DNA of 61,656 bases, counting the filler, from Asterionella formosa (Eukaryota): the NCBI GenBank assembly GCA_002256025.1. It is 24 parts of 24 records of this genome, joined end to end, with 100 filler letters (N's around TTAATTAATTAA, not from the genome) between each part and the next. Parts side by side here need not be neighbours in the genome. Positions count along the whole stretch, not along the records: positions 51,503 to 53,967 come from NKIB01015231.1; 23 more parts are not named here. One strand, 5' to 3'. The notes under the pieces are model-generated. The model did not search any database. It saw only the letters and a program-made list of their open reading frames with translations, and had not been told where the DNA came from. The position numbers were made by a program, and so were the translations under genes. Positions 16,053 to 61,656 of the stretch are shown in pieces; the first letter of the stretch is position 1; the number at the start of each line of letters is the position of its first letter.

Positions 16053-17962
16053 CTAACTTGGAATCCGATTTTTCACCACCAGTAGAGGTTTCACAACTAG
16101 TTGAGGACACAGCAGAAGACGAGGTTTCAGAGGAGGATGGGGTTGTAGATGGAGAACGTAAAAGATTCTCGCCATCGGCTTGGACATGGATGAGAACTTT
16201 TCCTGGGATGGAAACATTCTCCGAGAGAATAGAATATTTTTGAAGGCCTTTTTTGGGCATCGTATTACCTTAAGCAAAGCTGGTGGAGTTGGGACCACAG
16301 CTTCTTTGGCCTTTACAATGTTCTTTTCCTTGGAAGAAATCAAGGTTTCTTGCTCGATGTTTTTACGCCCCTCATTGTTAATGTTGGTCAAAGGTGGTGA
16401 AGGTAGGACCTGAACATCAACAATTCTCTTGGAGTCAAACCTGTTGGAAACGCCAAAAGTAGGGTCTTGAAAACTGTGCATCCACTTTGCACTCTCTTTC
16501 ACACCCTTGTTCCCAGTGAGAGGCGACTTGCTATTATTTTTCGTCAAATCTTCATTTGACGATGGGGACAACACTCGTTCCGCATACTGCAAGCACTCCT
16601 GACGAAATTGGTGGTAGGCTGCATCAGCCTGATAGAGCAAGCTTGAAATATTTGCTGTGTTAGTGACACCCTTGAAACTGCCTTGAGAGCTGAGCCTTTG
16701 AGTGGTGATTGCTCGGCGTGAAGCAAGAATTCCTGCTAGGTCAAATTGTTTCGACCTTATCCCATGGTGGGACAGGATGAGTTCCAGCTTGATCACATTC
16801 TGGTTACTTTTGTCGAAATTGACAACAGAAGGTCGTTCAGGATTGACACAATGGAGGAGGTCATTCTTTGAGGCAGTTGCCTTTGACTCACTACTATCAT
16901 CATCTGTTAGACTAATCACATCATTGTCCTTGGAAGAAATTCGTGATTTCTTGGAAATAGAACTAGAAGGGGGCCAGGTAGCCTTCGATCGTTTCTTGAT
17001 TATTGGCACAGCAACTTGTTGGGACTCCGGTTTGGAGACCAATTTGCTGGAGGTGGCAGCTGATTTGGAATCCGGTTTGGATACTTTTTTCCTGTTTATG
17101 GCAGCTGGTTTAGAGTCTGGTTTCGATACTTTTTTGCTGGGAATCGCGGCTGGTTTGCAGTCCGATTCAGATTCTTCGTAAGGATTAGTTACAGGCATTG
17201 ATGCAACATCTCGGCTCCTGGCTGTTGACTTCGCAGCGTTGTAAGCACCTGCCTTGGATGTGATGGCTTTGGTAGCATCATGCTTGGGAGTAGCCTTGGC
17301 AGAAGGCTTGAGTGCAACAGCTTTTGCAGCAACAGCTCTTGGAAGAGTCTTCATCCTCGTCTTTGCAGCTTTCTTTGGAACACTCTTCTGCAACACTCGG
17401 GATTGGGCCTGTGTTGATCCTGCTGTAACTATAGAAGCAGCCTTTTGCAAAGTGCCTCTCCTCGCACGCTTTCCGAGCGCATAAGAAGGCGCTTCCAAGC
17501 GGGCATACTCTGATCTGATAGCTGCCTTCGCATTCATCACCTCTGTCAGGCGATGAATGCAAAAATAGAAATGTGTGAATGAATAAATGAATATGAATAC
17601 AGCATATAAAGTAAACGAACATACCTTTTGGTTGCTTGTAGATGAAACCCCCAATGGGAAGAAACATCGAGTACACATAGGCTTGCTCTTCCAATTGATG
17701 ATCAAGAAGATCATAATGAGTGGCTGAAAGAAGACTCCCAGTTATATTTGTTCGCAAACGCACGATAGGAAAGGTCTCGAAATTTGCTGGTTCTGGCATA
17801 TCAGGTCCATAATTGTATGAATCAACATCGCCATCGTTCTTGTTCCTCTCATCATGAAGAAGGTTTTCAAGAGGATGATTGATCCTGTCCATCCAAGGAA
17901 TAGGATTGCAGTGTACAAATCCCAAGGATTTATACCACTCAACCGCATTGCCCAGCACCTGC
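16053..17962 (-). CDS. Spliced hypothetical protein with GNAT motif-B-like segment and basic low-complexity tail (5' partial); intron 17543-17624
   Basis: Exon with QVLGNAVEWYKSLGF. An 82-nt GTATG...CAG intron joins ORF 17278-17958 in frame to ORF 16053-17714 (..QPK/EVMNAK..). K/S/A-rich repeats (KKVSKPDSK). Confidence 0.6.
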
Positions 17963-23219: not shown

Positions 23220-25181
23220 AAAAAAGCATGAATATTTCATTTCCACCAACATTAGCTGGTGGAAAACATTTGACCAATCAAATACGGATTAATAACAACT
23301 CAAACATGATCATCCAACGCACACTCCATTATTTCGAACTAATACAGCTCATGGCAGCATTGCTACGTGATTCCGATATCATGCAACGCACATTTTGTAT
23401 GTCACCCACAAGTGAAACTTACAACTTGTGGAGAGAGCATGCATATATGACGAAGTAACTTCTGCGACTTGGTTTGAAAATGCATTCAACCAATCTCCTG
23501 CATCAAAAAATGGAGTGTTGAAGACAGGGTGTATATTTGTTGCCCTAGCAGTGTTGAGTGATGGGATGTTTCACCTATTGATAAAGAAATGAAACATTCC
23601 GAGCATCCGTTTTTGCTGACAATGTTAAACTTAACGTTAGAAGGAAGAGAAAAAATTGAAAAATGGCAGTTGGTATCTCTTTTGCCAGACATTGAAGTCA
23701 GTGATCCGGAGAAACAAATGAATATTAAGTTATCTGGTGACGACTTGTCCTTATGTTTGTCGTGATTGCCTGGTTTCAACTGAAGACTGCTGATAATCCT
23801 GATATTGGATGTAAACGTCGTAAAGTGTCAAAGGTTAAAAAGTTTTGAAACAAATTTCTTGACAAAAATGCATATCCCGATGGAAAATTACCATGTATCC
23901 CACCTGAGTATTGTGTCTCCCAATCTAATGGCTTTGGTGCAATGCCATTTGAGGTTCTTCATCAATTACTACTTGGAATATTTAAGTACATTTTGGAATC
24001 TTTGTACAAATATCGGACTATCCCTGAAGAATGGACATGTTTTTTAAAGAAAGAAAATCTCCAGATATTCCAGAGAACATCTCCAATCATAAGCGTTACA
24101 CTGAAACAACAGACTCTGCTTTTCTTGATCAAGAGCAACCGAAGAATCGGGCAAAGACCAAAAAGGACACACGCACCAGTTTCCAAAAATATCTAAACTG
24201 GCAAAAATCAACACCCAACACTTGTACCAGCACCAGAAATGTATTTTCCAAACTATACTATACTTCGAACAAAGTGCTAGATATATCAATAGTCATTTGG
24301 AAAGGTAAAGCGATCGTGATATTCCAAAATTGTCAAAATACTACAGATCTGGGATGACAGCTTTGTCGAAAATGTCAGGGCAAGATGGGTTCAGAGAACA
24401 TGCACCTAGAAAAGGATTTCACATTGCTGTTATGGTTATGTATATCTATCAATGACACTTTATTCATACCACAGTATACATCAACATGTGTTGATATTTT
24501 AGAGGAAAGGGTAAAGAGAGGATTTATGTCAGTTACTAAGATTATGATTTGTCCCCAATGGGAAATGATATCTCAAATTGGGTTACGAATGGCAAAATGT
24601 CACAGAATGAAACATTACCCTCATCTGATTAGGAAGTTCGGATCTCCTTTTAATTTCTTTGGTGGATATTTGGAGTCTTTTTTGAAAGACAAATTGAAAC
24701 GACCCAGTAAGCGTGTCAACGGACAATTACATCGATTAAAGCATGACATTTTAACAAGGTCATCTGAAACAAGGCAGTCTGCCTTGGCACGAAAAATTGT
24801 TTTTGTAAGTGATTCATTACATACAGAAAACAAACAAAAGAAGATGAGTAGAGAAAATACCATCAATGTAACTGAGGGTATTTCAACAGAAATTGATTTC
24901 GAAGGAATGATTCCGGATACAATGATGTTGCCTAGTAGGTCACCTGATAATTTGGGAATGTTGCCTACTAACAAGATCCATTCCCAAGCCCTTCCTGTTA
25001 AAGTTCAAGTCTCTGCTTTATCATCAAATGGTCTATGGACTATATCAGGTGTCCCTAATAAGATTGGGCATGTAGCACAGAGTAAGGATTCACCTTTGTC
25101 TTTATTGATTCATCCTGATTTACCGAAGGGGGCCAACTACGTAAAGAGCATTGCGAATTCAGCAATAGAAATAGCAAGAAT
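23220..25181 (+). pseudogene. Degenerate Plavaka-like transposase (multiple frameshifts and deletions)
   Basis: CRDC..ADNP..C, PFEVLHQLLLG, K.H.MKHY..LI.KFGSP.NF.GG.LES.LK...KRP. Homologous to 54534-56532 on the minus strand. Confidence 0.8.
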
Positions 25182-25390
25182 CTTTGGAGTGTTTTTGGCG
25201 GACGGTTTAATTGGCAATGCCACTGGCAGTGCTATTATCGGTGACAATACGGGTAGAAGGTTGGGGATGACCAAGCTCAACAAGAATGTTGCGAATAGCA
25301 TATGCCTCTTTGCCATGATTGTGGAACAAAGCAGCTAATTCGTCCTCAGCAGCACTTGATAAAACCTCCTTAAGAATTTGACAGTGTACA
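25182..25390 (-). mobile_element. Isolated ~210-bp Copia RNase H fragment
   Basis: Near-identical in reverse complement to 48241-48430 (LKEVLSSAAE.ELAALF..GKEAYAIRNILVELGHPQP..TDNSTASGIAN). Confidence 0.92.
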
Positions 25391-26944: not shown

Positions 26945-27050
26945 TTGTGGTACCAGGTACCAGTACCTAGTACTGGTACCGGCGCCCATTTGCTCGTATC
27001 GACTGGTTACCAGGGTACCGGTACCAGGTACCGTACCAGGGTACGTGTAT
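26945..27050. repeat. Cluster of nested GGTACC/ACCGGT/CCAGG palindromic micro-motifs
   Basis: tggtaccaggtaccagtacctagtactggtaccgg...ggttaccagggtaccggtaccaggtaccgtaccagggtac. Similar clusters at 28034-28056, 28088-28112 and 30501-30582. Confidence 0.9.
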
Positions 27051-28370
27051 GCGGGAATATACCATTTTATGTATTTAGAGTACCTAGTACTTTATATGGA
27101 GTCACCACGAGTACATATACTATAGCACTATATTACAGTAAATAGAGGACCAAGTCTTTTATTGTAGGGGTGTGTGTATATGTCTAATATACATATACCC
27201 GAAATGAAGTGAAAACAATCATTAAATAGCTAATGAAAAATAGTGAAAAAATAATGTAGCTACAGTTGTATGAAATCATGCATCTGTGTAATAATAACCT
27301 AAACACATACTAGCTGTGTATGACCACCAGTGTGATGATCAGCAGATATCCTCAATTGATTGGCAATCTAATCTGTGGCACTGTTCTATCTGGAATATAT
27401 ACCTCATACATTTTGTCAATTTGCAATGTGGCAGTGAAAAAAAACGCAGCTCAAAGTACTAGGGCAGTCATCATATCCCACAAAACGCTTTGCCAAGCAA
27501 CAATACTCCACCTTTCTTACTATATCCTGCTCAACCCTTGTAAAATTTTCAGCAACCTTACAAACCAATTCCAAATTTTTGCATTCCTACCACAGAACAA
27601 ATAGTTTTTGGTTGTACAAGAAAGACTACAATACTGACAGAATTGCTTCCTCCCTCCTACCTCTTTGACACACATCCTGCATCATTTCTGTTGGTTCATC
27701 AACTTGTTAATTGTTGAAAAGTTCTTCAAACACCACATTTGAGGCATTTCTGGACTCTCAATCATCATTCTGCATACTTGTCACTCCTGCTACCACCAAT
27801 AACTAGTAGTCAGGAGTCAACACTCCTTCAAGACGAGAGTCGACTGGCTGCTGTCATCCACATTGGTATCAAAACTAGGTGACATTGCATCTCGATCTGC
27901 TGGGAGGCAGTGCAACCCAAGTATATAGTTCCAAAAGCAAACTGGCAGCTCAGACTTCCCTCCTTCACCTGCTGTTGGTGTCCCATCAGTCACACCTTCC
28001 TCTCCTTACTGCTGCTGCATACCGAAGCACCGTGTACCAGGTACCAGTACCGGTACATGACTGAGGATGGGGTTTAATTTGTGTATACGACCGGTACCAG
28101 GTACCAGGTACTACAGTGTAATAGCTAATTTTATGTACTCGTACAGTGTATATTCCTACGATGATCGTGCGTACAGTTATGGTTTAATTAAACCAAAAAA
28201 TTAAACCCCCAGTTAAACCGGGTTTAATTTTTCTACTGGCAAATACTGTTGTAACACGGTGCTTCCACTANNNNNNNNNNNNNNNNNNNNNNNNNNNNNN
28301 NNNNNNNNNNNNNNTTAATTAATTAANNNNNNNNNNNNNNNNNNNNNNNNNNNNNNNNNNNNNNNNNNNN

Positions 28371-28760: not shown

Positions 28761-30944
28761 GATACGGATATCTCACTAAAGACGAGGAAAAGATTATGCT
28801 CTGTGGTACCCAACGGTTTTTTCAGGATAAAAGTACTTATCAAAAGTTTCGCTCTGGGTAATTTTGTTGTCTCATCATCAGCTTTTAAATACGATTACTG
28901 TCTGTACTATGGCTTGATGCGATTTTTGGGGCGACCGGGTAGTCCCTTTTGGCGTAGTATTAGCATAAACCCTAATCCTACGGTATATAATATTTTGCGC
29001 CTGGATTGGCATGTTATAATCACACCCACCATGTAGTCATTATTCTGTTGCTTTACTCAACAATAGAACATCCTCCTGTGCCGCTTCAAATAGCTTTCTT
29101 TCCTCCATGAGTAGCGCTTCTATTAAACACTGGAAGCGGCATGGGACAACACATATTGCTTTTTATATGAACTTTTTTGTTGGGCATGGAGATCCACGCC
29201 TAGCTACATGACCAATGGTTTCACACTCTTGAGCTTGATAGTGGGCAAGCTGGAGCTGAAACTTTATAGGAATGTCTCAAATAAGATCATGTAGAAGTTG
29301 CAATGAAGATACAACAATAATTTCACACCCATCGCTGCGCAATGGACTTCGATTTCATGTTTGTCATGAATGAATGCAACGATGACAACAACGAGATTGC
29401 GGATGCATGTGTACATAAACTTTATACATATGAATGTTATTTATATAGAACATTTTACTTCAGCCCAAATTATGTTGTACTGGTAGCCAGAATTATTTTG
29501 TATCGGTAGCTACAATGGCTACCCAATGTATTAATTAATTAATAGATAAAGGGATTCACAAGTCCCTTATGTGAAGGTCATTACTACGGTAGATGTTAAA
29601 ACATTGGTACAGCTTATTAGTACTATAGACAAAGGAAACATGGGATGTGCACAAAGTGTGCATGGAAACCACAGAAAAACAGGAGAGATCGGAATACTAC
29701 AGGCAGGCTGAGGAAAATTGAGCAACCATGGGAGCCAGCAAAAATTGAAGATGAAGTTCGAAAGCAAGCAAGCGACATGTAAACCACGCAAGGAGAATGT
29801 CATGGAAGAGTCGATCTGCCAGAGAACAACCATGCAGAGGGTTCAAGGCAGAAAGCTCTTAATTCTGCAAATTAGCTTTCGACAAAAGGAAATTGTTGAT
29901 CACAAAGCCCTGCAAATTTATAGTCTTTAGATAAAAATTCACCCACCCAAACTCCTACCCATGGCTAATGTGCAAAACTCGACTGCAGCTAGTATGGGAA
30001 ACCCGAAGCAAAGGAACTACCCTAGCTTCTTAGAACCAAATTCAAAAAACCAACTATGAGTCTAGATTAGTTTGCGCACCAAATCAAACTCAACAAAGTA
30101 TCAGAAGAGGAACAAAGGAACATTTGCAGAAAAGGCAGTCGGATGAGTTGGTAATTGAGTCGAAGTAACTTTGTCTGGAGGTATATATATATATATAAAT
30201 ATATCTTCATCGACCAAAACATTTTGCTCAGATTGATTTGGTGAGAACGTCGATTTCACGGGTCTGCTGTGCCAAGCGTTATTGATTTAACCGTTAACAC
30301 TCCTGCTCATGTCTGTTTGAATTCCTGTGCCTGCCCCTCAGCCGCTAACAACTTGAATGAGCGAAATTGCTTTGCTGTACGTTTCGGTAGGTAGTAATTA
30401 ATGGATTGTGCTGAGACTAAGAGTTTAGCTTTCTTTTTCCCATATTGAATTGTTTCTTTTTTAGCAAAATGACCGCAGAGTCCGGGAAATCCTCCTTGCT
30501 TGTACCAGGTACCGGCACAAGGAAGGACTAGAATGGTACCTGGTACATACCGGTACCAGGTATGCACTAGCTTACCGGTACTTTTCTAGAGACTAGTAAC
30601 TGATGTCACTGGTATCACATAACATGAGATTTCAAATACAGTACCGCTAAAAAAGGAGGCGAGGCCGACGCCAAAGAATGCCAGAAATTTGCGATGATTA
30701 TTTAGAATGGAAAGGTGATGTCGAAGTATGCCTGTTTATAAGCTATGACCACCACCGGGCTCTGCGACTTGGCGTGTCACACTCATCATCAGAACAAGAG
30801 CAAGAAAGAATAGAAGTGATGAAGAATCCCAATCAAATCATTGCNNNNNNNNNNNNNNNNNNNNNNNNNNNNNNNNNNNNNNNNNNNNTTAATTAATTAA
30901 NNNNNNNNNNNNNNNNNNNNNNNNNNNNNNNNNNNNNNNNNNNN

Positions 30945-33418
30945 GTTCTCGGATATGCCTTTGCTGTTACTCTTGGAGCGCTGTTTGCTGGAAAGACTAC
31001 CATGTGGGACGGCATCCCATCGGCTGTCTCTGTCGTTGTCTTCTTCCTGCTCATGGCCTTTGTTGGAATGATGGAGGGTATGCAGATTGCCCTTTTCGCC
31101 GTTCTCAACATGCCCGAGGAAGAGCTCACCAAGCACACAATCGCTCACAAGAACTGTCAGTTAACCTTCTCTGGACAGAACTTACAGGCCTTCTTGATCG
31201 GACGTCAGATCTGTGTGACTGTGTGCATGTTCATTGTTGCGCGCATCACGTCTCTTGACTACACTGCTGGCGACAGCAACATCTTCGGTGTATCCGATGG
31301 ACTCCAGAACTTTTTCAACACTGGTCTTATGGGAGCAATTATCACCACCATTGTTGGGTCCCTGGCATGGCGTATTATTGCATCATCGTTTCCACTTGCC
31401 TTCCTTTCCAACCCTCTTATTTACCTGATTATTAGACTATGTCTCCTTCTTGAAGCCTCCGGTCTTTGCTCTGCTGCATGGGTTCTTGCCCGTTTCAACA
31501 AACCTCTTGCTGGATACCAACCTGATGAGGTATACCTTGAGGGCGCCGAGAAGCATACTTCTGCTCCTGTTACTCGACGTGACAAAGATATCGACCGTGT
31601 TATTACAGTTTTCAAGTTCACCTATTCTCTTGGCCTTATGGCTTTTTCTCTTCTCATTGTCATGGCTGCTATCTTCTCCAATCAAACGAAAGGCACCGGA
31701 CAAAACAGCATCCCCCCTATTGTGGCATTTATTGTTTTCTGGTTCCTCATCCTCTGGCTAGCTATGATGGAAGGAGGCCAGGGTGCACTTGTTGGCCTCC
31801 AACCCATTGAAAAGGATAAGTACGCTGAATCCCACCCTCGTGCCTTGAAGAATACACTCCTCGCACACAAGGGCGACAACATGGAGCGCTTCATTGTTGG
31901 ACGTCAGTTTTTGGTTGTCTTGGTCGTTTTCGTCACCAACTTGATGGCCTCCGCCATCCCGGATGCTTCTGTCCTCGGATTACCGGATGTCCTGAACCAA
32001 ATCTTCCTTTCAACTGGAATTGCTCTTATCTTGACAGTTATCATGCTTGGTCAGTTGACTGCTCAAGTCAACGCAAGTAACTGCTTGCTTGATTTCATCA
32101 ACAACTACTTCATGTTGTTCACCACATATGTCTCCCTTGGCATTGAATTCTCTGGTCTCTTGCACTCTGTGTATCTTGTTCAGATCTTCTTCTCCAAGAT
32201 CAGCGGAAAGCCAATTGACTCAAAGGAACCTCCAAGAAACGCTATCCAGAATTTGTTCTTCTGGTTCCGTGTTTTCATGTCTATTCTTATCCTTGGATTT
32301 GCTTTCGCCGTAACCCTAGGAGCACTGTTTGCTGGAAAGACTACCATGTGGGCGGGCATTCCTTCAGCTGTGTCAGTCGTTGTTTTCTTTATTCTCATGG
32401 CCTTCGTGGGTATGATGGAGGGTATGCAAATTGCTCTTTTCGCCGTTCTCAATATGCCTGAGGAAGAACTCAAGCAACACAGTATTGCTTACGCCAACTG
32501 CCAATTGACATTTACTGGACAGAACTTGCAGGCATTTTTGATTGGTCGTCAAATCTGTGTTACCATCTGTATGTTCGTTGTCGCTCGCATTACCACCCTT
32601 AACTACGGTTCTGATGACGCCAACATCTACGGTGTTTCCGATGGTTTGCAGAACTTTTTCAATACCGGTCTTCTGGGAGCTGTGATCACTACCATTGTTG
32701 CTTCCCTTGCATGGCGTATCATCGCTTCGTCATTCTCCTTGGCTTTCTTGTCGAACCCTCTCATCTATCTCATCATCCGACTGTGTCTCATGCTTGAGGC
32801 GTCTGGACTTTGCTCAGCTGCTTGGGTCCTTGCTCGTTACCACAGGGTCATTGTTGATTACCAACCTGATGAAGTTTACCTTGAGGGTGCCACGCGATGG
32901 ACTGGTGCTCCAGCTACCAAGCGTGACAAGGATATTGATATCACTGTAACCGTGATCAAGTACACGTACTCATTTGCTCTGTTGGCATTCTCGGTAGCCA
33001 TTGTCATGTCTGCTATCTTCACGAAGCAGACAAAGGTTGCTGCCAATGTGAGCCCAATCTTGGCTTTCTTTGTGTTCTGGGGATTGCTTGCATGGTTGGC
33101 AATGATGGAAGGAGGCCAAGGATGTCTTGTGGGACTTCAGCCCGTTGACAAGGACCTATACGCCGAATCACACCCAATTACTGTCAGAAACACCCGTCTC
33201 GCTCACAAGGGTGACAACATGGAGCGTTTCATTGTTGGACGTCAGTTCCTGGTTGTTCTTGTTGTTTTCATTACCAACATGTGTGGATCCCCCATTGCCG
33301 ACGCAACTGTGCTTGGATTGAGCTCTACATTGAACGACGTATTCCTTACGAACGGCATTGCAATGATTTTGTCTACCATTATGATTGGACAGCTCACTGC
33401 TCAGATCAACGCCGCCAA
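30945..33418 (+). CDS. SIT: Multiplied silicon transporter (at least three SIT units fused in one ORF), partial at both ends
   Basis: GXQ motifs in order EGMQ/GRQ (31074), EGGQ/GRQ (31770), EGMQ/GRQ (32418), EGGQ/GRQ (33108). Period about 1340 nt. CLLD variant of the CMLD motif at 32082. No stop or intron between units. Confidence 0.97.
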
Positions 33419-38378: not shown

Positions 38379-38562
38379 GCTGCTTCCCAAGTCCAATGGT
38401 ACCACCAGAATGCAGCGAAGTTTTCTTCCCATTCATGATCCTTGGGACTTCGTCATGTTGTGGCTGTCGCGGGCCGTTGCAACGAACGATAATGGGTGAT
38501 GCACCAAATTTTTCCGGTATAATAGAGGGGGGGGGGGCAGCGCTTTGCCTTTTACAGCCACT
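38379..38562 (-). mobile_element. Repeated terminal segment of a putative DNA transposon; second copy at 61441-61656
   Basis: The reverse complement matches 61441-61656 closely except for one ~30-nt indel. G/C homopolymer near the end; internal subterminal direct repeats at ~38135 and ~38273. Confidence 0.7.
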
Positions 38563-38662: not shown

Positions 38663-41117
38663 CTCATGCCTAGATTAATTTCATTGGCAGCCACTTTTTC
38701 TATCACTGCCTCAGACATCATCAAATTCAATAGATGTCGTCTGTATCTGCAGGTGCTCACTCTGTCCGACATTGTCGACAGTACAGGCAACACCATTGAT
38801 AAGGACTTTTGGAACAGATACAAAAACAATAGAGTCTTCAATCTCTCCTGGCCCAAACAAACCCGCCCTGGCCCCACCAGCTGGACAATTTGGAGACGCC
38901 TACTTTCACACCTCTTCACCATCAAATCTCGCTCCCCTCACCTTCGCCCTCAAAGCTGTCTCCTCAAATGGCTTCCCACTGGACCCTCTCACCAACACTG
39001 GCCGACATATTTGCATCCATCATCTTCTACCTTCTATTGTCGCCTCCCCTCTGATCCTTCCCTCTTCTCCCCTTATCGTCGGAACAATCGGCTCCGCTTC
39101 ACACCCACTCCAAATAACCTTACCTCCACTCTTCCCTCTTCCGCCATTCCAATTTCGGTCTCTTCCTGGCTCCCCTTCCCGCAAACTCTATCCCACCATA
39201 TTCGAATTCTCCCCTCCCTTCTCCCTGAATCACATCTCCCACCAACCTTCTCCACCTACCTTTCATCTCTCTCTTCTTATGACAATTATTATATCGGCCA
39301 GGTTACCTTCCCGCCCGATATTCTACCACTCCTCCAAGATATCAAAACCAATAATTTTGAAGTTGCCACTGATGGATCAGTCCGCTCTCCCCATGGCTCT
39401 TTCTCATGGCTTATTCATGGCCGCTCCAGTGGCACCCAAATCTCTGGCTACAACACTACCACCTTCACCGCCACCCCTCTTTCTTCCTTCCGGACAGAGT
39501 GCTGCGGCTATCTTGGTGCAGTTCTTGCTCTTCGTGCTCTTCTTACATACCATGATCTTCTAGATCCCCTCACTCCTTTCACTGCTAGAGCTCACATCGA
39601 CAACCAGGCCCTAGTCAAGCGTCTGTCTCACCACCATCAACACTCAATTCGTCACAGTCTCCACCCAGACTGGGACCTTATCCACTCAGCCACGAAGGTT
39701 CTGGCATCTATCCCGGTCGATCTCCAGGCGGTTCACATCAAAAGCCATCAAGATGACAGCAAACCCTATGAAGCCTTAACTCTGCCTGCAAAACTCAATA
39801 TCCAAGTTGATAGACTCACTCATTTAGCCTATCTCCGCTGCCCCCAGCGCTCTATTACTCCGCTTTCCCCTCAAGTCCCCGCTACCCTCCTTCTTCAGGG
39901 ATCTCAAGTTACATCTCAGATGATCCCTACAACTCTGACAGCGTACTATAAGCCCAAACAATTCAAGTACTTCCAAACACGACACGGATGGACGCAGTCA
40001 ATCTCTGACTCTATTGACTGGAAGTCTTCCACCAGCGCATACAAACACTTGTCATACGGACGCAGACTAGCAATGTTTAAGTTAATAAATGGACAATGGC
40101 CCACCAACAAAATCTTACATCGCCGTGGCAAAGCCCCGGCTTCCTTATGCCCACGCTGCTCCAATGCCGTTGAGGACCACGATCACGTCCTAACCTGCTC
40201 AGCTTCTTGCCACTTTCGGGATACAAAGTGGACCGCTCTCTCTGACCATCTGAAATCCAAACTTTGCACTCCTCCCCATATTCTCCTTGCCCTAACCCAT
40301 GGTCTCCAATCGTGGGAAAATGGTGACATTCCCCCACTTTGGCCTCTTCCAGATCCCTCCCCAACCGACCCTCTTCTTTGGACGACCTATCAGGCATATG
40401 TCCAACAAACAGCTATAGGATGGAACCACCTCCTAAGGGGACATCTATCAGTTTCTTGGGCCCATGCCATGACAACCTATCACTCCATCAGACACATCAA
40501 GACCAACGCTATGAATCCTCTCTTTGGAAAAGTCAACTAATCAACTCCTTACGCGCCTATGCCATGGAACAGTGAAATAATCGCAATGATTTTGTCTATG
40601 GCGCCACTCTCCTTGCCACTAATGCACGCCGAATCACATTGCTTCGAACACAGACAACTACAGCTTACTCAAACCAGATCTCTGTCCCAGCTGATGAACG
40701 AGGACATATATTTGGCCTTCCTCTCTCTCAACGCTTACTTCATTCCCCGTCGGCACTGACGGCCTGGCTGGCAATCTATCGTGCGGGTCAACTACGCCTC
40801 ACATCCCAAATACGTCAAGACAAACGCCGCTAGGGCACAATCCGAAAATTTCTTATCTGTCGCGCAACCCCTCGCCGTCCCTCTTCACCTGTCTAAGTCC
40901 ATCTAATCGAACTCCACACTTTAGTCGAGGCTCAATAACGCGTACTTAAAAATTTAGTTACCATATATCATTAGAAGTAACTATTTGCAGAAATAGGTAC
41001 CTGGTACCAGTGAATTACCTGCTATGAGTCAACAGGTACCAGGTTCCGTATATTTCATTATCCTGGCCCCCCTAATGTACACTGCCGTGACTTGGGGGGG
41101 GGGGGCAGGACAAAAAA
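38663..41117 (+). mobile_element. 3' half of a non-LTR retrotransposon with RNase H and CCHC finger (Ambal-like), degenerate at the 3' end
   Basis: NRCRLYLQV..LSDI, RNase H TDGS..SFRTE..IDNQ..HIKSHQD..N..VD, CPRC..EDHDH..C, QQ.IGW..LLRG. Frameshift near 40510; ends in a GC hairpin plus short A tract. Confidence 0.85.
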
Positions 41118-43699: not shown

Positions 43700-44029
43700 N
43701 NNNNNNNNNNNNNNNNNNNNNNNNNNNNNNNNNNNNNNNNNNNTTAATTAATTAANNNNNNNNNNNNNNNNNNNNNNNNNNNNNNNNNNNNNNNNNNNNT
43801 AAATTGCAAAAATTTGAAATATAACTAAGAATTTAAAAAACATAAAGAAGGAATACAAATAATCCGATGTATACATAAAAACTGCCGACCATAATTTCAA
43901 AATACTGCTGTTAGGGTTAGGGTTAAGGCTCTCTCTTCTTGGTATGAAGTAAATACTACCTGAACAACAAAGAAGAACATACAAACAAAATAAGGACGTG
44001 CCTGTGACTGTACCAAATCCCAGGTACCA

Positions 44030-45260
44030 TAATTTCAAATCAGTGTCGGTCACCAGCATAAATCAACAAAGGTACAAGTACAAGTACAAATACATTATAC
44101 TGAACATTTCAAATCAGTGCCCGTCACCAGTATAAATCTATACATTATACTGTACAGTAAAAAAACGATCTCTTCTCTGTCTACGGAAGACATGCTACCG
44201 GATAGATCAATGAACTTCAAGGTACCACGTACCAATACATCATACCAGGTACCAGGTACTGAACAAATACACGTATGTGCAGCTACATAAAAATAATCAT
44301 AACAAAATACCTATACTGTACAGTAAAAAAAAGGATCTCTTCTGTGTCTACGTAGGACATGCTACCGGATAGATCAATGACCTACCAGGTACCACGTACC
44401 AATAATCATAACAAAATACCGATCGTCATTTCAAATCAGTACCAGTAAACCAGTACAAATATACAAAGGTACAACTTTGTCATACAACCATTATCATTGA
44501 CATCAAAAACAAACACACCATGACGATCACACCGTCCATTGTTTCTCATCCAATTCTTGTCCAAATGAAAACGTCTTTACTCGATTCAGTGAACCCAACT
44601 CATCTTCACATATGACATAAAATTCTTTTTCGTACCGATACCAATTACATCTTTCAAACCATATAAACATGCCGCAACTGATGCCCTGCCCACGGCCAAA
44701 AAGAAATAACGAATATTTCCACTCCACCATGATAATCAGGACGCACCCGCGAATGCGAATTATATAAATATATGACATGCATAACATAATGTGTAACATT
44801 TTACATGACAATCACTCTGGTAAGTACAAAAACAGTGCCCTTCTACATATTCATATCAAAAACAAACAACCAGTACTTACATATTCATTCCCATACCAGT
44901 TTCCATCTGTAGGAATAGTCATACTGCGTACTACAGTTACATGTCCAGCCCTAGAGGGCTGGATGCTCTATAGGGATGACGCCTAGAGGCGTCTTCCCTT
45001 TACCCTAACCCTAACCCTAAATCCTATTGTAAACCTATTGTAGTTTCTTTTAAGTATATTCTTATTGTAAACCAATTGATGTCTTTAAGTATCATAGGAC
45101 GTAGGTCTTTTGTGGTAATAGTATGATTCCCGAAGGTAACCGAAGGTAAGTATAGTTCTATTGTAAACCTATTGATGTTTTTAAGTATCATAGGACGTAG
45201 GTCCTTTGTGGTAATAGTATGATTCCCGAAGGTAAGTATAACTCTATTGTAAACCTACCT
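44030..45260. repeat. Non-coding repeat region with direct repeats, twin hairpins and telomere-like hexamers
   Basis: ~90-bp duplications at ~44147/~44314 and ~45062/~45158; hairpins at 44944-44999; (CCCTAA)3 at 45003-45020. Confidence 0.8.
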
Positions 45261-46368: not shown

Positions 46369-48834
46369 ACCTTAACTACACTACGCAAACATCCCCCTCA
46401 TTCCATCGCAACCGTCAAAGGCCACCTCGATCAAACATGTCAAAACGTACAATCCACACGTGTGCCCCCAACTATCATTGAGCCTGAACTTGCATCCATT
46501 CCTACTACCAATGTGCTGGGTGATGCTGATTGCCACCCTGAGGGTCTTGCAACCCCTACTCACATGTGTTTTGCGTCCATTATTGAACCCACAGGCCAAA
46601 TTTACACTGATCAAACCGAAAAATTCATACTCCCCTCCAGCACTGGAAACAACTACATTATGATTTTATATGATTATGACAGCAACTACATTTTCGTTCA
46701 GCCCTTTCATAACCGAACCGCTTCCTGCCTCCTTGCAGCATATAAAACATTACATCAACGGTTGTGCAAAGCAGGCTTATGTCCCAAACTCCAACGCCTT
46801 GACAATGAGTGTTCTACACTCCTCAAAGAGTTCTTGGACGCAGAAGCTATTGACTTTCAGTTGGTCCCGCCGGCTGTCCATCGTCGCAATGCCGCTGAAC
46901 GTGCAATTCGCACCTTTCAAAATCATTTCATTGCCGGTCTATGCAGTGTCGACAAACACTTTCCTCTCCACTTGTGGGACCAACTATTAGTTCAAGCTGA
47001 ACTTACTCTTAATCTCCTCCGTGACACACGCATCAACCCCAAACTGTCTGCTTGGGCACAGGTCAATGGAACATATGATTACAACTGTGTCTCCCTTGCT
47101 CCACCTGGCTGTCGGTTCCTTGTTCATGCCAAGCCCCAACACCGAGCAACATGGGCTCCGCATGCTCTCGATGGTAGGTATGTCGGCCCTGCTGTGGATT
47201 CCTATCACTGCTACCGCATCTGGATGTGGGACACACGTTCAATCAGAATCTGCGATACTGTCTTGTGCTTTCCAACCAAAGTCCACCTACCCTGTAATTC
47301 ATCTACTGACCTCATCACAACCAGTTTGCAGGACATTGCCTATGCCTTGTTACATCCCACCACTCGGTCTCCCGTTGCCCCACTCACTGCAACCCACAAA
47401 GCTGCTCTCCAGCAGCTCCTTGAACTTCTCTCACCGCCTGAGCTCACCCAACTACCCATTGCTCCCCTCCTGCATCACCCCATTCCATCTTTGAGGGTGC
47501 CCGGTACACCCACAGCATCCACCATCCCCCTTCTCCCTGATGCTGATGCCTGTATACCTTTTCCGGTCTCTCCCACCCTCGATGGCACTGCCCAACCACT
47601 GAGGGTACTTAACCCTAACCCTAACCCTACCCCTACCGACCCGAGTGTTGTTAACCCTACCCCAAACCCTAACCCTCACCGCGCCGGTAATCCTAACCCT
47701 ACCCCTAGGGCCCCTCCTGCCAGTGGCTGCACGATCCTTCCAGCACCCCCTCGCACTTATCACGATGCTGTTGTGCTGCCCAGTCCCCTACCACCTTCCC
47801 CTTCGGACACTTATGACACTACCACTGTGCCCAAGAGCCGTCGTCGCCATTAAACCACACTACGTGATGCACCACATGCCAGCTGTCCCCACACCCAATC
47901 TTTGCTTGCCAAATGTGCTCTCTCCGCCCCTCCTCAAACCAGTGCTACTCCCCTGGCAACTAATTTTTGTTTCCATGGCACCGCTATCAACCCTGACAAT
48001 GGCAAAATTGCAGGATATCGAGAATTATTGACTTGCAGCACTGCTCCCCTGTGGGCCACCGCCAACGATTAGAAATTGGCCGGTTATTTCAGGGCTTGGG
48101 ACCCCATTCTGACATGCCCACGGGTACTAATTGCTGTTTTTTCATTCATAAGCATGAAATGCCCTCACACAAATGCGCCACTTACATCCGCATTGTGTGT
48201 GCCGATCGCCCTGAAAAACCATTCCCCAACGAGTTCGTTTGAAGGAGGTTTTATCAAGTGCTGCTGAGGCCGAATTAGCTGCTTTGTTCCACAATGGCAA
48301 AGAGGCATATGCTATTCGCAACATTCTTGTTGAGCTTGGTCATCCCCAACCTTCTACCCGTATTGTCACCGATAATAGCACTGCCAGTGGCATTGCCAAT
48401 GATACCGTCCGACAAAAACGTTCCAAAGCTATGGATATGCGTTATTACTGGGTACGCGATCGGGTTCGCCAAGGCCAATTTCTTGTATACTGGAAAAAAG
48501 GGAGTTTGAATCGTGCTGATTATTTCACTAAACATCATCCCGCTTCCCATCATATGTTGATGCGCCTGCACTATCTCCATTGCCCTCCATCCCTCCCTAG
48601 TCCTCCTAACTATTATGCGTGCTTGGCTTCCGATGCTGATATCATCTCCACCCCCGTTCCTGTTCTTCTGCCTGAATCTGTTGGTGAGGGTGTGTTAATA
48701 TCTGCATATGATGCTCCATACATGCTCCGTACGAACCATACCGGCGCAGCCACCAGATTAGGTACATGCATGAGTGCTAACAACGATGTACTCGAAACAG
48801 CAATAGAATAGTCATAATATTGTAGTTCACCTTT
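46369..48834 (+). mobile_element. Degenerate CoDi-type Copia: integrase, RT almost entirely deleted, RNase H, start of 3' LTR (~48693)
   Basis: IYTDQT, RLDNE, HRRNAAERAIRTF. RT start (ATY.RIVCADRPEK..RVR) is fused at ~48239 to RNase H (SSAAEAEL, TDNSTA, KRSKAMDMR, ADYFTKHH). Purine tract ggtgaggg then TGTT. Confidence 0.92.
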
Positions 48835-51502: not shown

Positions 51503-53967
51503 AAGGATTGGGGCGTTCGCTGGAACCTGACCTGAATTTGATAGATTTTGCTATTCCTTTCGTGCTCGGGCGTGCCATGGTCTAGTCTCAACACTATGAC
51601 CGGGCTGCTGAGGCTTTACAAATATTTCTGTATGATGGGAGGAGCTACCAGGGTACTAGGAGTCATCGGAACCGTAGGAATTATGGCCAATGCCCGTGAC
51701 GGGTCATATCCTATGCTTGAAATGATTCCTACAGTATTTGCATGTTCAAATTACTGGTAGATCATTCGAGAAGGTATGTTCTTCATCAATGCCGACAGCT
51801 TACCCCTCGATTATGACGTAGATATACTAGCAGGAATTCCTGCCTATAGGCATGACGCCATCAATATACCGGTAATTATACTACCGTACGGTTTTTTATT
51901 ACACCGGGAGGATCTGCCAGTATTTCATGTTGTTTCTTTGGGCATGGTGTATAATAGGAAAATACTGCGTGTGCCAAAGGTTGGTTGCCGAGTCATCAGA
52001 ACCATAATATTCTAGCAGATGCCCGTAGTGGGTAATCACATTTTCTTTATCTGATTCCCTTTTGCATGTACAAACTAGAATACCGGTAGAGAAGTCTTGT
52101 TCCTCATCAATTTGACAGGTTAAGACTAGACTACCTCTTTTATTGTGGAGTATGATACAATTGCAGCAAGTACTGTCTGCGTACTTTACAGATTCGATAG
52201 AACATCGGTCGAGTACGTGTAAATATAAACCGACGATAAATGATCAATTTTATTATATACAATTAATCAATCATAGGATTATATGAAAGAAAGTACCGTG
52301 GTTCTTTGTGGACCTTTCAAGGAGTATACATAAATATTGCTTGCCGCGGTAATCAAAGAATTGGATCGTTTCGTCAAGAATCAGCCAAATTGTCGTTCCA
52401 ATGCGTCTATTCGCCTACATCGATTCAATCCTATTTGAAAATTCTGCCCACGTAAGTGGTACTTGGCACCTTTTCTTTTGGAATTAGTCAAGCGATAATG
52501 GAAATGACCTCCCATTGTCAACAAGCCCGAATTGTCAAATCAGTCAAATTGTTGTTCCTTTGCGTCGATTCGTCGGCATCGATTCGATTCCCATTTGAAT
52601 ATTCCGAAATTCTAGATGGCATCTGTTCTTCTAGAATTAGTCAGCAGTCTTTGCAATGAATTATTACAAGCCCAAAACGTCACATGATGACTTCGCCTTT
52701 CGAAGCAAGCTCTATGTCATTTGTGTGTAACGAAATGGTCGATTTGGGTGAATACCGTGAACTGTTGAACACATTACGAACTAAAATGCCTTTGACTACA
52801 ATGGGAACGGAGGTACTAATTCAATTACCCTTTCGATGAAAAATGACTCCACTTTAATATGACCTCCTATTCCCAGGATGATAAAATGTGGAGTTTGCGT
52901 TTTGTGCTGGTACAAGGTACCAGTACCTAACGTTTTGTGCTCTTTTGGTCGATTACCGGTATACAGACACTAAAATTAAACAAGTGGAGATTGCTTGCAC
53001 ATGAGGTCATTCTCAGTGCTACCTGTATGTACTATCACGAGTCTTCTGCATTCTTGCTTTGAATTTTTATTGACATGCAAGGAACCGAAGGAATGTAGAA
53101 ATCCACAGGCCCCCACCATACATAGAAAGGACGGTTTTCTCTCTGAGCACAAGTCAGCTATACTTCTCGTTCCTTGTACCAGGCACTTGGTGACACTCCG
53201 TTTGAATTATTACACCTACCGGTATTTATGTATCTAGCCGCCTTGCTTACTTGCTGACATACCTTTAAACTTTCTTTCAATTCCTACTACCTGCAGGGTA
53301 CTATCGATGCATGGGAAAGATGATGCATTGTCATCACAAAAGACATTATGACCTCGTCAAAGGTCGAACCACCGGGGAAATTCACAGCTTTCACAGCCGC
53401 CATTCTGCCACGGCATCATGGAAAATGTGATCCTCAGACCTGTGTCATCCAAAGAATAAGTATTCTTGGTAATTAATCGTTTTGTGCTATCTTGCAAGTA
53501 CAGATGCCAGGTTTGACAAAACCTTGTTCCAATCACGGACTAACAGGAGGCACTTGATGGCATCGGAAAAACTGCTCTGTGAAGTCTTTCTCTGAGGGCA
53601 ATTTATAACCATTTCACGGTAGAAAAATGCGTGGTTATCAACTCACTGTAAATCTCGTAAAAAAATATATGTAATACCGGTACTCCACTCACGTATAATC
53701 GATCTCCCGATTAATAATGTGGTGACTTCGATAAACGAAGGATCATAATTCTAATTTTAAACGAAACATCGTCAAACCATTATTGTGAACGAAACAAAAC
53801 TATCGAATTTTCAAAAAAAAATCAACTAAGAATGACTAAGCCAATTTCCCAATCAGCTACCGTCAACGATACATCAAGAAGCTCCAAAAAGCGAAGCGCC
53901 TCTGTCAGTGTTGATCCAGTAGCACTTCTCAACGATGTCGGCATTTCGCACTTGCAAAGCGGGAAGT
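51503..53967 (+). repeat. Second allele/copy of contig 2584-5064
   Basis: Colinear end to end with 2584-5064. Confidence 0.97.
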
Positions 53968-54533: not shown

Positions 54534-56532
54534 TTATCTTTCCGTATCTGTTCCAAAACTTCTTGCGGTGTGTTTCAGAGATTTCCTTGATTCCTGTGGT
54601 TTCAAAGCAGGAACAACAAATGCTGCCGAAAGTATCATGTTATGAAATTCAACAACGCTCAATTCAGTTGTATCATTGCATAAGGTGTCTCCTCTTGCAA
54701 AAAACATACGTTTATGAATTTTCATTTCAGTTGAACTTTTCAAGGAACGAATACACACTAAGAGAATGGTTGTTGAGTTGGAGAAAATAACATTTCCCCA
54801 AAGAAGTAGTTTTGCAGGAACTGTGTAGGAACTTGATCCATCTCCCTTCTCCCAGTTCACTTCGACCCAGTCAAACCATTCACGACCAGAGATTCCTGCC
54901 TTTGAATCATCATTCCACTTCGGATGGCATCTGAAAATATTAGTTTGGCCGGGAAAATTACTTTCAATTTTAACTTGATAATAAAAGTCAATCCTTACAA
55001 TGGAAACAGGCCCAATCCCATCTTCAAGACTTTTGATTTTTGCTATTTCTATTGCTGAATTCGCAATGCTCTTTACGTAGTTGGTCCCCTTCGGTAAATC
55101 AGGATGAACCAATTGAGACAAGGGTGCATCCTTACTCCGTGATACATGCCCAATCTTATTAGGGACACCTGCTATAGTCCATAGACCATTTGATGATGAA
55201 GCAGAAAATTGAACTTTAACAGGAAGGGCTGGTGAATGGATTTTGGTAGGCGATATTCCAAAAATTTCAGGCGACCTACTAGGCAACATCCTTGTATCCG
55301 GAATCATTCCTTCGAAATCAATTTCTGTTGAAATACCCTCATTTACATTGATGTATACTTTACTCATCTTCTTTTGTTTGTTTTCTGTATGTAATGAATC
55401 ACTTACAAAAACAATTTTCGTGCCAATGCAAACTGCCTTGTTTCATACGACCTCGTTAAAATGTCATGCTTTAATCGATGTAATTGTCCACTGACACGCT
55501 AACTGGGTCGTTTCAATTTGTCTTTCAAAAAAGACTCCAAATATCCACCAAAGAAATTAAGAGGAGATCCGAACTTCCTAATCAGATTAGGGTAATGTTT
55601 CATTCCATGAAATTTTGCCATTCGTAAGCCAATTTGAGATATCATTTCCCGTTGGGGACCAATCATAATCTTAGTTACTGACATAAATCTCTTAACGCTA
55701 TAATTTATCAATACATGTTGATGTATATTGTGGTATGAATAAAGTGTCATTGATAGATATACATAATCATAACAGCAATGTGAAATCCTATTCTAGATGC
55801 ATGTTCTCTGAATCCATCATTCCACCCATTGAAAAAATAGTTAACAGACATAGCTAATCCGGGAATTTCTTGCCTTGCCCTGACATTTTTGACAAAGCTG
55901 TCATCCCAGATCTGTATGACAATTTTGGAATATCACGATCGCTTTGCCTTTCCAAATGACTATTGATATATCTAGCACTTTGTTCGAAGTATTGTTTCGA
56001 AAATACATTCCTGGTGCTGGTACAAGTGTTGGGTCTTTATTTTTGCCAGTGTAGATATTTTTGATAACTGTTGCGTGTGTCCTTTTTGGTCTTTGCCCGT
56101 TTCTTCGGTTGCTCTTGATCAAGAAAAGCAGAGTCTGTTGTTTCAGTGTTACGTATATGATTGGAGATGTTTTCTGGAATATCTGGAGATTTTCTTTCTT
56201 TAAAAAAAACATGTCCATTCTTCAGGGATAGTCCGATAATTGTACAAAGATTCCAAAATGTACTTTGATATTCCAAGTAGTAATTAAAGAAGAACCTCAA
56301 ATGGAGTTGCACCAAATAATCCTTCTTAAGTCACCACCAAAAAATGATTTATTTGTGCAGGCGATATAATCCATTACCACCCCTGAAGCCACAAATTTTA
56401 TTGTGTTCTTCTGTATCACCAATGATCATTCCAACTTGGAAATAAACTTTTGTCATACCAAGACCATGAACCCAAATATCGTATGACTTGTTTGGATCTT
56501 CGAAAGGCGACAATAGAAATCCTGTAACAGAA
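54534..56532 (-). pseudogene. Degenerate Plavaka-like transposase, second copy, retaining the C-terminal domain
   Basis: KFHGMKHYPNLIRKFGSPLNFFGGYLES, FRCHP, WFDWVEVNW, VPAKLLL. Highly similar to 23935-25181. Confidence 0.85.
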
Positions 56533-59058: not shown

Positions 59059-59819
59059 TGTTTTCAAGGTCTTGAATAGTGGCTAATGGGTTTGGNNNNN
59101 NNNNNNNNNNNNNNNNNNNNNNNNNNNNNNNNNNNNNNNTTAATTAATTAANNNNNNNNNNNNNNNNNNNNNNNNNNNNNNNNNNNNNNNNNNNNGCCTG
59201 CCTCCCAACGATTGTCATCCAAGTACCACGCACATTGATGGCTTCATTACCTTAAACATTCTCCATCCTTCGAAGGCGCAATGTGTCGAAGTCACAATGT
59301 TTTTCGTTATGTATTGCAAAAAATTTCTTTTCTTGTCATGTGCTTTACTACGACGTATCTTTTCATGAAGCAGCAGGCATTGTTTGTTAACATGACAGAA
59401 CGATTTCAAAAATATATATGCCATGGATATAGAAATAAAATTTGTAAATATATATATATATTAAGTGTTATACATTTATAAAATTCAAACGCGCTCTCGA
59501 TATGGAACATCTGATATGGTTGAGATGATCATACTCGCATATACATAATTCGAAAATACTCAATGCACTATATGTCCATTGTTTTCCACGACTACGTGTA
59601 CCGGAATTGTTTCTGAAATTTGTTTGCATCGATATTTTCTACGTCCGTTGAAACTAATTATTTAGACCGTTAAATAGCCGCCAGGGTTTTGGTAGAAAAT
59701 TGTTTAAGCTCCTTTTTTGGTCGGGAGCTCTTCATGTGTACCGGTACATCATATGACAATAACAATATATCATATATATATACAGAGTACCAGCAGCAGG
59801 TAGTAAGTGATATACTGGG

Positions 59820-60340
59820 GGTAGTCGGAGTAGTAAACTAGCAACAGAACACCATATGTTCGGGAATGTTGCTACTGCAGTGGGACAGTAAATCATCATA
59901 GTTTTAGGATCGTATGATCATAAAACTATAAACCAAAAGAACACCATATGGTCATGACTGTTGCAATTACATTGGGACAGTAAATCATCATAGTTTTAGG
60001 ATCGTATGATCGTAAAACTAAAAATAAATAGAACACCATATGTTCATGACTGTTGCAATTACAGTGGGACAGTAAATCATCATAGTTTTAGGATCGTATG
60101 ATCGTAAAACTAAAAACAAATAGAACACCATATGTTCATGACTGTTGCAATTACAGTGGGACAGTAAATCATCATAGTTTTAGGATTGTATGATCGTGAA
60201 ACTGAAAAGCGGTACCGGTAGTCGGAGTAATAAGCAAGCAATAGAACACCATAGTAAATCATCATAGTTTTAGGATTGCATAAATAGAACACCATATGTC
60301 TATGACTGCTGCTACTACAGCGGGACAGTACCGGTAAATG
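59820..60340 (+). repeat. Tandem repeat, ~90-bp unit, 4-6 variably complete copies
   Basis: agaacaccatatgttcatgactgttgcaattacagtgggacagtaaatcatcatagttttaggatcgtatgatcgtaaaact repeated. Confidence 0.93.
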
Positions 60341-61440: not shown

Positions 61441-61656
61441 AGAGGCTGTGAAAGTCAAAGCGCTGCCCCCCCCCCTCTATTACACCGGAAAAATTTGGTA
61501 AATCACCCATTATCGTGCGTTGCAACGGCCCGCGACAGGGTGGCTGTGGTTATGGAGCAGGGGGTAGAACGCCACAACATGACGAAGTCCCAAGGATCAT
61601 GAATGGGAAGAAAACTTTGCTGCATTCTGGTGGTACCATTGGACTTGGGAAACAGC
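61441..61656 (+). mobile_element. Terminal segment of a putative DNA transposon (copy of 38379-38562)
   Basis: Direct sequence match in inverse orientation. Confidence 0.7.

Follow-up and report, generated by a model that had tools for sequence, protein, structure and literature searches.

We analyzed a stretch of DNA from the assembly GCA_002256025.1 of Asterionella formosa (here called the window, positions 1 to 61656) that consists of 24 contigs of 2,461 to 2,483 bases, ordered by size and joined by artificial spacers (44 N, TTAATTAATTAA, and 44 N), so that features on different contigs have no physical linkage. Contig 13 (30945 to 33416) is wholly occupied by a silicon-transporter open reading frame (ORF) (Pfam Silic_transp, 1042.9 bits), and the Pfam scan also located Copia-type polyprotein ORFs on contigs 4, 8, 9, and 19. 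Together, these genes indicate that the organism is a diatom. Our subject is a set of short words, TA-CCGG-TA and its variants, in which a few bases stand between two copies of the dinucleotide TA. They differ between alleles of one locus, contigs 2 and 21, and are strongly overrepresented in the window, almost entirely outside long ORFs.

A global alignment covering the full length of contig 2 (2584 to 5064) and contig 21 (51503 to 53967) contained 2393 matches, 58 mismatches, and 9 insertions or deletions (indels), and the first and last 60 bases of the two contigs were identical. Three indels were homopolymer changes of 1 nucleotide (nt), one was a TAT tandem copy, one was a tandem duplication of 14 nt, and four were events at TA sites. 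An earlier reading of this DNA from the sequence only had listed these four differences, and the alignment placed every one of them at the position given there. Its statement that the larger indels are mostly TA-site insertions also held, with 4 of the 5 indels of at least 5 nt being of this kind. For the population comparison, assembled contigs from X1, X5, X6, and X7, public runs that each belong to a different study, were aligned to contig 21 only; assembled contigs drop rare variants. The public runs containing this locus were mostly labeled freshwater or lake metagenomes. The polymorphic sites were as follows.

51752 to 51759 (contig 21), no strand assigned: TACTGGTA, with a plain TA in contig 2 (2836 to 2837) and TACCGGTA in run X1.
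52081 to 52088 (contig 21), no strand assigned: TACCGGTA, with a plain TA in contig 2 (3159 to 3160); the 6 nt are lacking in X6, X7, and one X5 form.
3886 to 3894 (contig 2), no strand assigned: TACCGGGTA, with a plain TA in contig 21 (52814 to 52815).
4313 to 4319 (contig 2), no strand assigned: TACAGTG, with CAGTG inserted at 4315 to 4319 and TA in contig 21 (53235 to 53236); also present in X7, class uncertain.
53260 to 53261, no strand assigned: TA in both window alleles, TACCGGTA in run X6, where TACCGG is inserted behind 53259.

Thus, three of the nine indels between the alleles convert TA to TA-C(C/T)G(G)G-TA, that is, TA plus 4 to 5 nt plus TA, and in these three, the TA is duplicated. 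It is not duplicated in the fourth, which had been proposed as the footprint of an element with CAG ends. This assignment found no support, since the TA is single and the word TACAGTG is at most ca. 2-fold enriched in the window (14 occurrences versus 6.79 expected, with allelic and repeat duplicates counted within the 14). We therefore set the CAGTG event aside as unassigned; its membership in the TA-CCGG class is not shown. Even so, TA-site events make up three or four of the nine indels, so the expectation that they would be a major source of indels is borne out at this locus, in agreement with the density of the words across the window (see below).

Run X5, sequenced to very high depth, contained both forms at similar depth: the 6-nt gap accounted for 457.9 of 1410.6 at 51752 and for 473.8 of 1847.9 at 52081. 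Unlike X5, the runs from the three other studies each carried a single form, and in X1, a single contig of 14,854 bases extended across the whole contig 21 stretch with differences at 9 positions and a single gap. The view that contigs 2 and 21 are allelic was thus corroborated, and the data fit segregating haplotypes rather than fixed paralogues. Combinations of events varied among haplotypes. The insertions at 51752 and 52081 were present only in contig 21 and X1, TACCGGGTA (at 52811 in the contig 21 numbering of the run alignment) was confined to the contig 2 form found in X5, and CAGTG occurred in the contig 2 form and X7. The fifth event, in X6, is independent of the others. It comes from one contig with a depth of 4.6 and deserves confirmation, but errors do not typically take the form of a clean 6-nt insertion that spells precisely this word. 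At 51755, X1 has C and contig 21 has T, so that two nearly identical haplotypes carry the same insertion, one as TACCGGTA and the other as TACTGGTA. This is direct support for the suggestion that CTGG derives from CCGG by a C-to-T change.

Two further features of this locus were noted. A 13-nt stretch, CTGTATGTACTAT (53023 to 53035), is present in both window alleles and lacking in X6 and X7, and it is not of the TA-CCGG type. In addition, the 35-nt segment at 53126 to 53160 occurs in other contigs of X1 and X5 and is therefore repeated elsewhere in the genome; beside one of the other copies, we again found TACTGGTA.

Across the window, the enrichment predicted against a dinucleotide-matched null was strong. 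TACCGGTA occurred 24 times versus 0.37 expected from dinucleotide shuffles (0 of 100 shuffles reached 24, and the largest value was 2), and TACCWGGTA occurred 16 times versus 0.25 expected (0 of 100 shuffles reached this count). TACCAGTA and TACTGGTA together were found 12 times versus 1.34 expected, a count again reached by 0 of 100 shuffles, and TACCGTA/TACGGTA were found 10 times versus 2.6 expected. When contig 21 was excluded to avoid double counting, TACCGGTA was the most overrepresented 8-mer after the G homopolymer, above telomere-type and TA-repeat words. The bias was specific to TA: 19 of the 97 CCGG sites and 16 of the 86 CCWGG sites were flanked by TA on both sides, no other flank pair exceeded 3 occurrences around CCGG, and 11 control tetramers showed no flank bias. 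Because only TA..TA flanks were enriched around CCGG, and palindromic flanks of other kinds were not, snap-back, hairpin, or general palindrome-forming repair was rejected as the source.

The sites lie at independent loci. Their flanks were mutually unrelated, with no consensus past the TA and no bias at positions −1 and +1. Among the 35 core sites, 21 were isolated, and 14 adjoined another unit in short arrays. The split between coding and noncoding DNA that had been anticipated was pronounced, with 33 of the 35 sites outside ORFs of at least 100 amino acids (aa) (19.4 kb) and only 2 inside (37.5 kb; binomial P of ca. 1e-13). The resulting density, ca. 1.7 per kb of noncoding DNA, was fairly even across noncoding stretches. 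Besides the polymorphic sites, four TACCGGTA sites were shared by both alleles of the locus (contig 21/contig 2 positions 51867/2945, 52954/4033, 53217/4295, and 53675/4772). These and the other main groups of sites are given below.

51867 to 51874, no strand assigned: TACCGGTA, one of the four shared sites; common to both alleles and therefore an older event.
26951 to 27043 (contig 11), no strand assigned: array read from the sequence as consisting almost entirely of TA and short C..G cores. It starts with TA-CCAGG-TA-CCAG-TA-CCTAG-TA-CTGG-TA-CCGG and ends with TA-CCAGGG-TA-CCGG-TA-CCAGG-TA-CCG-TA-CCAGGG-TA.
28035 to 28110 (contig 11), no strand assigned: two more short arrays, TACCAGGTACCAGTACCGGTA and TACCAGGTACCAGGTA.
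30503 to 30580 (contig 12), no strand assigned: cluster of five core motifs.
14110 to 14331 (contig 6, noncoding), no strand assigned: three isolated TACCGGTA sites (14110, 14262, and 14324).
44243 to 44258 (contig 18), no strand assigned: TACCAGGTACCAGGTA doublet, with more sites at 44383, 45328, and 45578.
59739 to 60336 (contig 24), no strand assigned: three isolated TACCGGTA sites (59739, 60213, and 60329).

We also examined other diatoms, using metagenome contigs searched with the silicon transporter (57 loci, 314,556 bases). Transporter identity to the window was 51 to 79%, and therefore none of these loci comes from the same species. After near-identical duplicates (L001, L005, L013, L025, and L036) were dropped, 271 kb was counted, in which TACCGGTA had 11 sites versus ca. 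2.3 expected and TACCWGGTA had 11 versus ca. 1.3 expected under an order-3 model. These sites were concentrated in L004, L024, L037/L039, L019, L057, and L014, and in L057, three TACCTGG units were arranged head to tail. Their density was 0.21 per kb outside ORFs versus 0.047 inside, the former being about one-eighth of that in the window organism. The signature is thus common to other diatoms and much stronger in the organism of the window. Five pairs of sister samples (L004/L005, L024/L025, L036/L037, L013/L014, and L001/L002) yielded 4 indels in total, none of the footprint type; the pairs were 99.5 to 100% identical where they aligned as the same locus and hence were uninformative on this point. 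Separately, L019 contains low-complexity tracts (8850 to 9050 and 17550 to 17680) in which TACTAGTA, GCTAGTAG, and TAGTAG units abound. Like TACCGGTA, TACTAGTA consists of a 4-nt palindrome between two TAs, but it lies within simple repeats.

In our judgment, these words are probably excision footprints of a cut-and-paste transposon of the IS630/Tc1/mariner/pogo type that targets TA and has ends beginning with CCG or CCGG and with CCAG. Tc1/mariner transposases cut the nontransferred strand a few nucleotides inside the element, leaving 3′ overhangs, according to the accessible parts of two reports (PMC6943129 and PMC2874221), and the first of these describes footprints made of the terminal 2 to 4 nt between TA copies, such as TACAGTA/TACTGTA for Sleeping Beauty (PMC6943129). 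As far as these sources go, a duplicated TA around a short palindromic or nearly palindromic core is the anatomy of Tc1/mariner footprints, which supports this reading (PMC6943129 and PMC2874221). Under it, the element would insert at a TA, duplicating it, and on excision, the nontransferred strand would be cut a few bases inside each end, producing short 3′ overhangs of element-end bases that host end joining would anneal. CCG ends (3-nt overhang with a CG/CG overlap) or CCGG ends (4-nt, self-complementary overhang) would both give TA-CCGG-TA, that is, TACCGGTA. CCGGG or CCCGG would arise where the overlap is one base shorter and mismatched at its center, and CC(A/T)GG would arise from CCAG ends that pair across three bases around an A:A mismatch in the middle. 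CCAG or CTGG could result from full four-base pairing with two mismatches or from a later C-to-T change at the CpG. The cores found between TAs (CCGG, CC(A/T)GG, CCAG/CTGG, CCGGG, and CCG) are few and constant, as fixed termini would give. Footprints would pile up in unconstrained DNA, and since each adds one TA, reinsertion into old footprints or slippage could build arrays. With one scar per cut-and-paste jump, the scars of an active low-copy element might greatly outnumber its copies.

Footprints of TA-targeting elements are textbook knowledge, and several known systems resemble the one proposed here. Minos leaves four terminal bases plus TA, a net gain of 6 bp as in the conversion of TA to TACCGGTA, through 4-nt overhangs and heteroduplex repair. 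Elements of the Mos1 type (mariner) share the TA target and the 3-nt 3′ overhangs that our model allows, and the left end of Mos1 begins with CCAGG, resembling the CCAGG core; they differ in that CCA overhangs have no microhomology favoring CCWGG. Mariner-like elements have been reported in marine diatoms. Sleeping Beauty/Tc1 is alike in its TA target, the duplicated TA, the few end bases left behind, and the near-palindromic core produced by overhang annealing, as described in the available part of the source cited above (PMC6943129), and TACC(A/T)GGTA follows the same central-mismatch logic as its TA-CAG-TA/TA-CTG-TA footprints. However, the cores here are CCGG or CCWGG, of 4 to 5 nt, rather than C(A/T)G, of 3 nt. 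The footprints described here are also natural, both fixed and segregating at ca. 1.7 per kb of noncoding DNA. Searches of open-access papers and preprints turned up nothing that describes this signature in diatoms or treats TACCGGTA as a word in genomes.

Several results weigh against a transposon source. The elements with TA-flanked CCG, CCA, or CAG termini that the sequence-only reading had predicted were not found: no TA-flanked inverted repeat with CC.. termini was present among 12 candidates in the window or 49 candidates in the 314 kb of related diatoms, nor did any sequence other than TA recur after TACCGG or TACCAGG in the window, and the 48 contig ends shared no element terminus. Transposase domains were absent from 28 window ORFs (E values up to 1e-5, with 11 rescanned at E values up to 1) and from 64 ORFs of relatives, and the lack of a mariner transposase among these ORFs is a further difference from mariner systems. 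Loci with three states (empty, filled, and footprint) had also been expected; at five sites in the two alleles and four runs, the states seen were empty TA and footprint, with no element-filled allele or joints in the run contigs, although assembled contigs make this weak evidence. None of the 10 indels between the related copies on contigs 10 and 22 (ca. 92% identity) was of the TA-CCGG kind, though this repeat lies mostly inside long ORFs. The overhang model is itself flexible and fits almost any C..G core, with either a 3-nt or a 4-nt overhang. As for diatoms in general, the consulted part of a survey of two model species describes class II elements as Mutator-, Harbinger-, and piggyBac-like and leaves mariner unmentioned (PMC2806351). 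The idea of a Tc1/mariner/pogo footprint stands as regards the TA target, its duplication, and the short constant core, and neither an element nor a transposase turned up in the contigs and ORFs covered here. The samples are small and biased against repeats (2.5-kb contigs and gene-anchored metagenome contigs), and the missing element therefore lowers the probability of a transposon but does not remove it.

Some specific candidates were tried and discarded. A 540-bp TA-flanked sequence in L024 (592 to 1135), with 15 of 16 matches in its terminal inverted repeats, begins with AGTC and does not fit. The loose run ends at 51523/51561 and 53126/53160 do not represent a filled allele, as they stem from short repeated segments rather than from the TA sites. 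The repeat shared by contigs 10 and 22 (23933 to 25182 and 55035 to 56316; 1.25 kb in opposite orientations) encodes an ORF of 300 to 326 aa without a Pfam match and carries a 56-nt insertion in one copy. It ends inside both contigs without obvious target duplication, and it was rejected as the source element for its lack of inverted ends and of any Pfam match. Terminal inverted repeat elements make up 2 to 16% of some diatom genomes, up to 15.84%, and the words footprint, excision, and indel are absent from the portion of that preprint at hand (bioRxiv 10.1101/2025.10.24.684338). The Mutator-, Harbinger-, and piggyBac-like elements of diatoms move by cut-and-paste, like the proposed source, as far as the survey excerpt shows (PMC2806351). 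Footprints of PIF/Harbinger, piggyBac, and Mutator were nevertheless rejected, given that the CCGG core is directly flanked by TA left and right and that no third base is conserved. The target duplications of Mutator, Harbinger, and piggyBac are 9 to 10 bp, 3 bp (TWA), and TTAA, respectively, and not TA.

An origin without any transposon would be in keeping with the missing element. In this scenario, which we consider unlikely, a host nuclease or domesticated transposase would make cuts at TA staggered by 2 nt. The TA would be duplicated by fill-in, and TA-CC/GG-TA and its variants would form once a polymerase had extended both 3′ ends with C and the ends were joined. Besides the failure to find a source element or transposase in the window or its relatives, it would readily explain, as a conserved process, why CCGG and CCWGG cores are found again in diatoms with silicon transporters that share only 57 to 76% identity with that of the window, and it agrees with the fairly even density across noncoding stretches. 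However, the terminal bases of Tc1/mariner-type elements show conservation over a broad range of hosts, and shared cores are therefore compatible with transposons too. The CCAG, CCAGG, and CCAGGG variants require extra assumptions, and the ca. 8-fold difference in density between the window and its relatives (1.7 versus 0.21 per kb) is better suited to a lineage-specific burst of an element. We also know of no TA-specific host insertion process of such a kind, which counts against this scenario.

The opposite direction of change, in which an older TACCGGTA is broken at CCGG and repaired to TA through TA microhomology, seems to us very unlikely. Microhomology-mediated deletion can act on direct TA..TA repeats spaced by 4 to 5 nt. 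Nevertheless, each of the four TA-CCGG-type insertions was private to one of the four haplotype groups formed by the two window alleles and the runs: two on contig 21/X1, one on contig 2 and one X5 form, and one on X6, that is, on three terminal branches. The root can sit on only one terminal branch, and therefore, at least two of the events should be gains under any single rooting. For a one-versus-three pattern, a derived singleton would moreover be 3 times likelier than a derived tripleton under a neutral frequency spectrum. Deletion also leaves the ca. 65-fold excess of TACCGGTA unexplained, since something must still create the word.

We give an equally small chance to a GGTACC-type microsatellite spreading by replication slippage or to a selected protein-binding word in intergenic DNA. 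The 14 core motifs that adjoin another unit, the arrays with a 6- to 7-nt period in the window and in L057, and the intergenic position of the motifs are all in line with such an origin. It accounts poorly for the 21 motifs that are single units in unrelated flanks. Moreover, the polymorphic events hit a plain TA without a prior repeat, so slippage may lengthen arrays without being able to start them, while binding sites arise by substitution, a route that does not yield clean TA-duplicating insertions of 6 nt. Finally, an assembly or library artifact (linker remnants or misjoined reads), conceivable for a fragmented assembly with contigs of ca. 2.5 kb, is in practice already refuted by the same states in contigs of four independent studies. 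The motifs also turn up in other diatoms, in metagenome contigs that unrelated projects produced.

A broader proposition, to which we assign a low probability, is that diatoms harbor a TA-targeting cut-and-paste system, low in copy number but very active, and that its TA-CCGG-TA and TA-CCWGG-TA scars dominate the nontandem indels of noncoding DNA. Such a system could consist of a family of transposons sharing conserved CCRG termini or of an enzyme, host-encoded or domesticated, that acts without any resident element. If the proposition is true, ca. 2 scars per kb would steadily seed CCGG and CCWGG sites, which contain CpG and are potentially methylatable, as well as new short arrays of the GGTACC type. 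Footprints are usually studied at one laboratory locus each, and here, one word segregates in natural populations. Should the transposon interpretation hold, the element would be nearly absent from the sampled DNA as a resident copy and yet account for ca. one-third of the haplotype indels at the locus, an impact wholly missed by standard repeat annotation. The words would then provide a simple k-mer assay of past and present transposon activity across diatoms, and the CpG decay of CCGG to CTGG/CCAG would provide dated neutral markers. If no element exists, the signature would point to an undescribed TA-specific insertion process, and in this boldest version, TA-specific insertion without any transposon would be a new kind of mutational mechanism.

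Other features of the window and of the related loci were recorded in passing. The contig 13 ORF is 824 aa long and contains three Silic_transp stretches, and the contig has an internal duplication (30948 to 31940 versus 32292 to 33278, 75% identity) that gives it the appearance of a tandem multidomain silicon transporter (SIT) gene. In contig 1 (3 to 2483), an open frame of 827 aa encodes F5/8 type C, Peptidase_M66, and TagA domains, an architecture like that of the StcE/TagA metalloproteases. This is out of the ordinary for a diatom contig; the gene may have been transferred, or the contig may be a contaminant. Telomere-type repeats were found internally on contig 18, where (TTAGGG)2 and (CCCTAA)3 are inverted ca. 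1.1 kb apart (43911 to 43922 and 45003 to 45020), and on contig 19, with a further (CCCTAA)2 at 47613 to 47624. Runs of 10 to 12 G (or C) lie near the ends of contigs 15, 16, and 24 (38527 to 38537, 41094 to 41105, and 61466 to 61475) and may be sequencing artifacts that broke the assembly. Among the relatives, three metagenome contigs from different diatoms (L004, L015, and L019) have the same gene order, with a gene containing an rRNA_processing domain, a flavodoxin/FAD reductase, and the silicon transporter, which suggests conserved synteny around one SIT paralogue.

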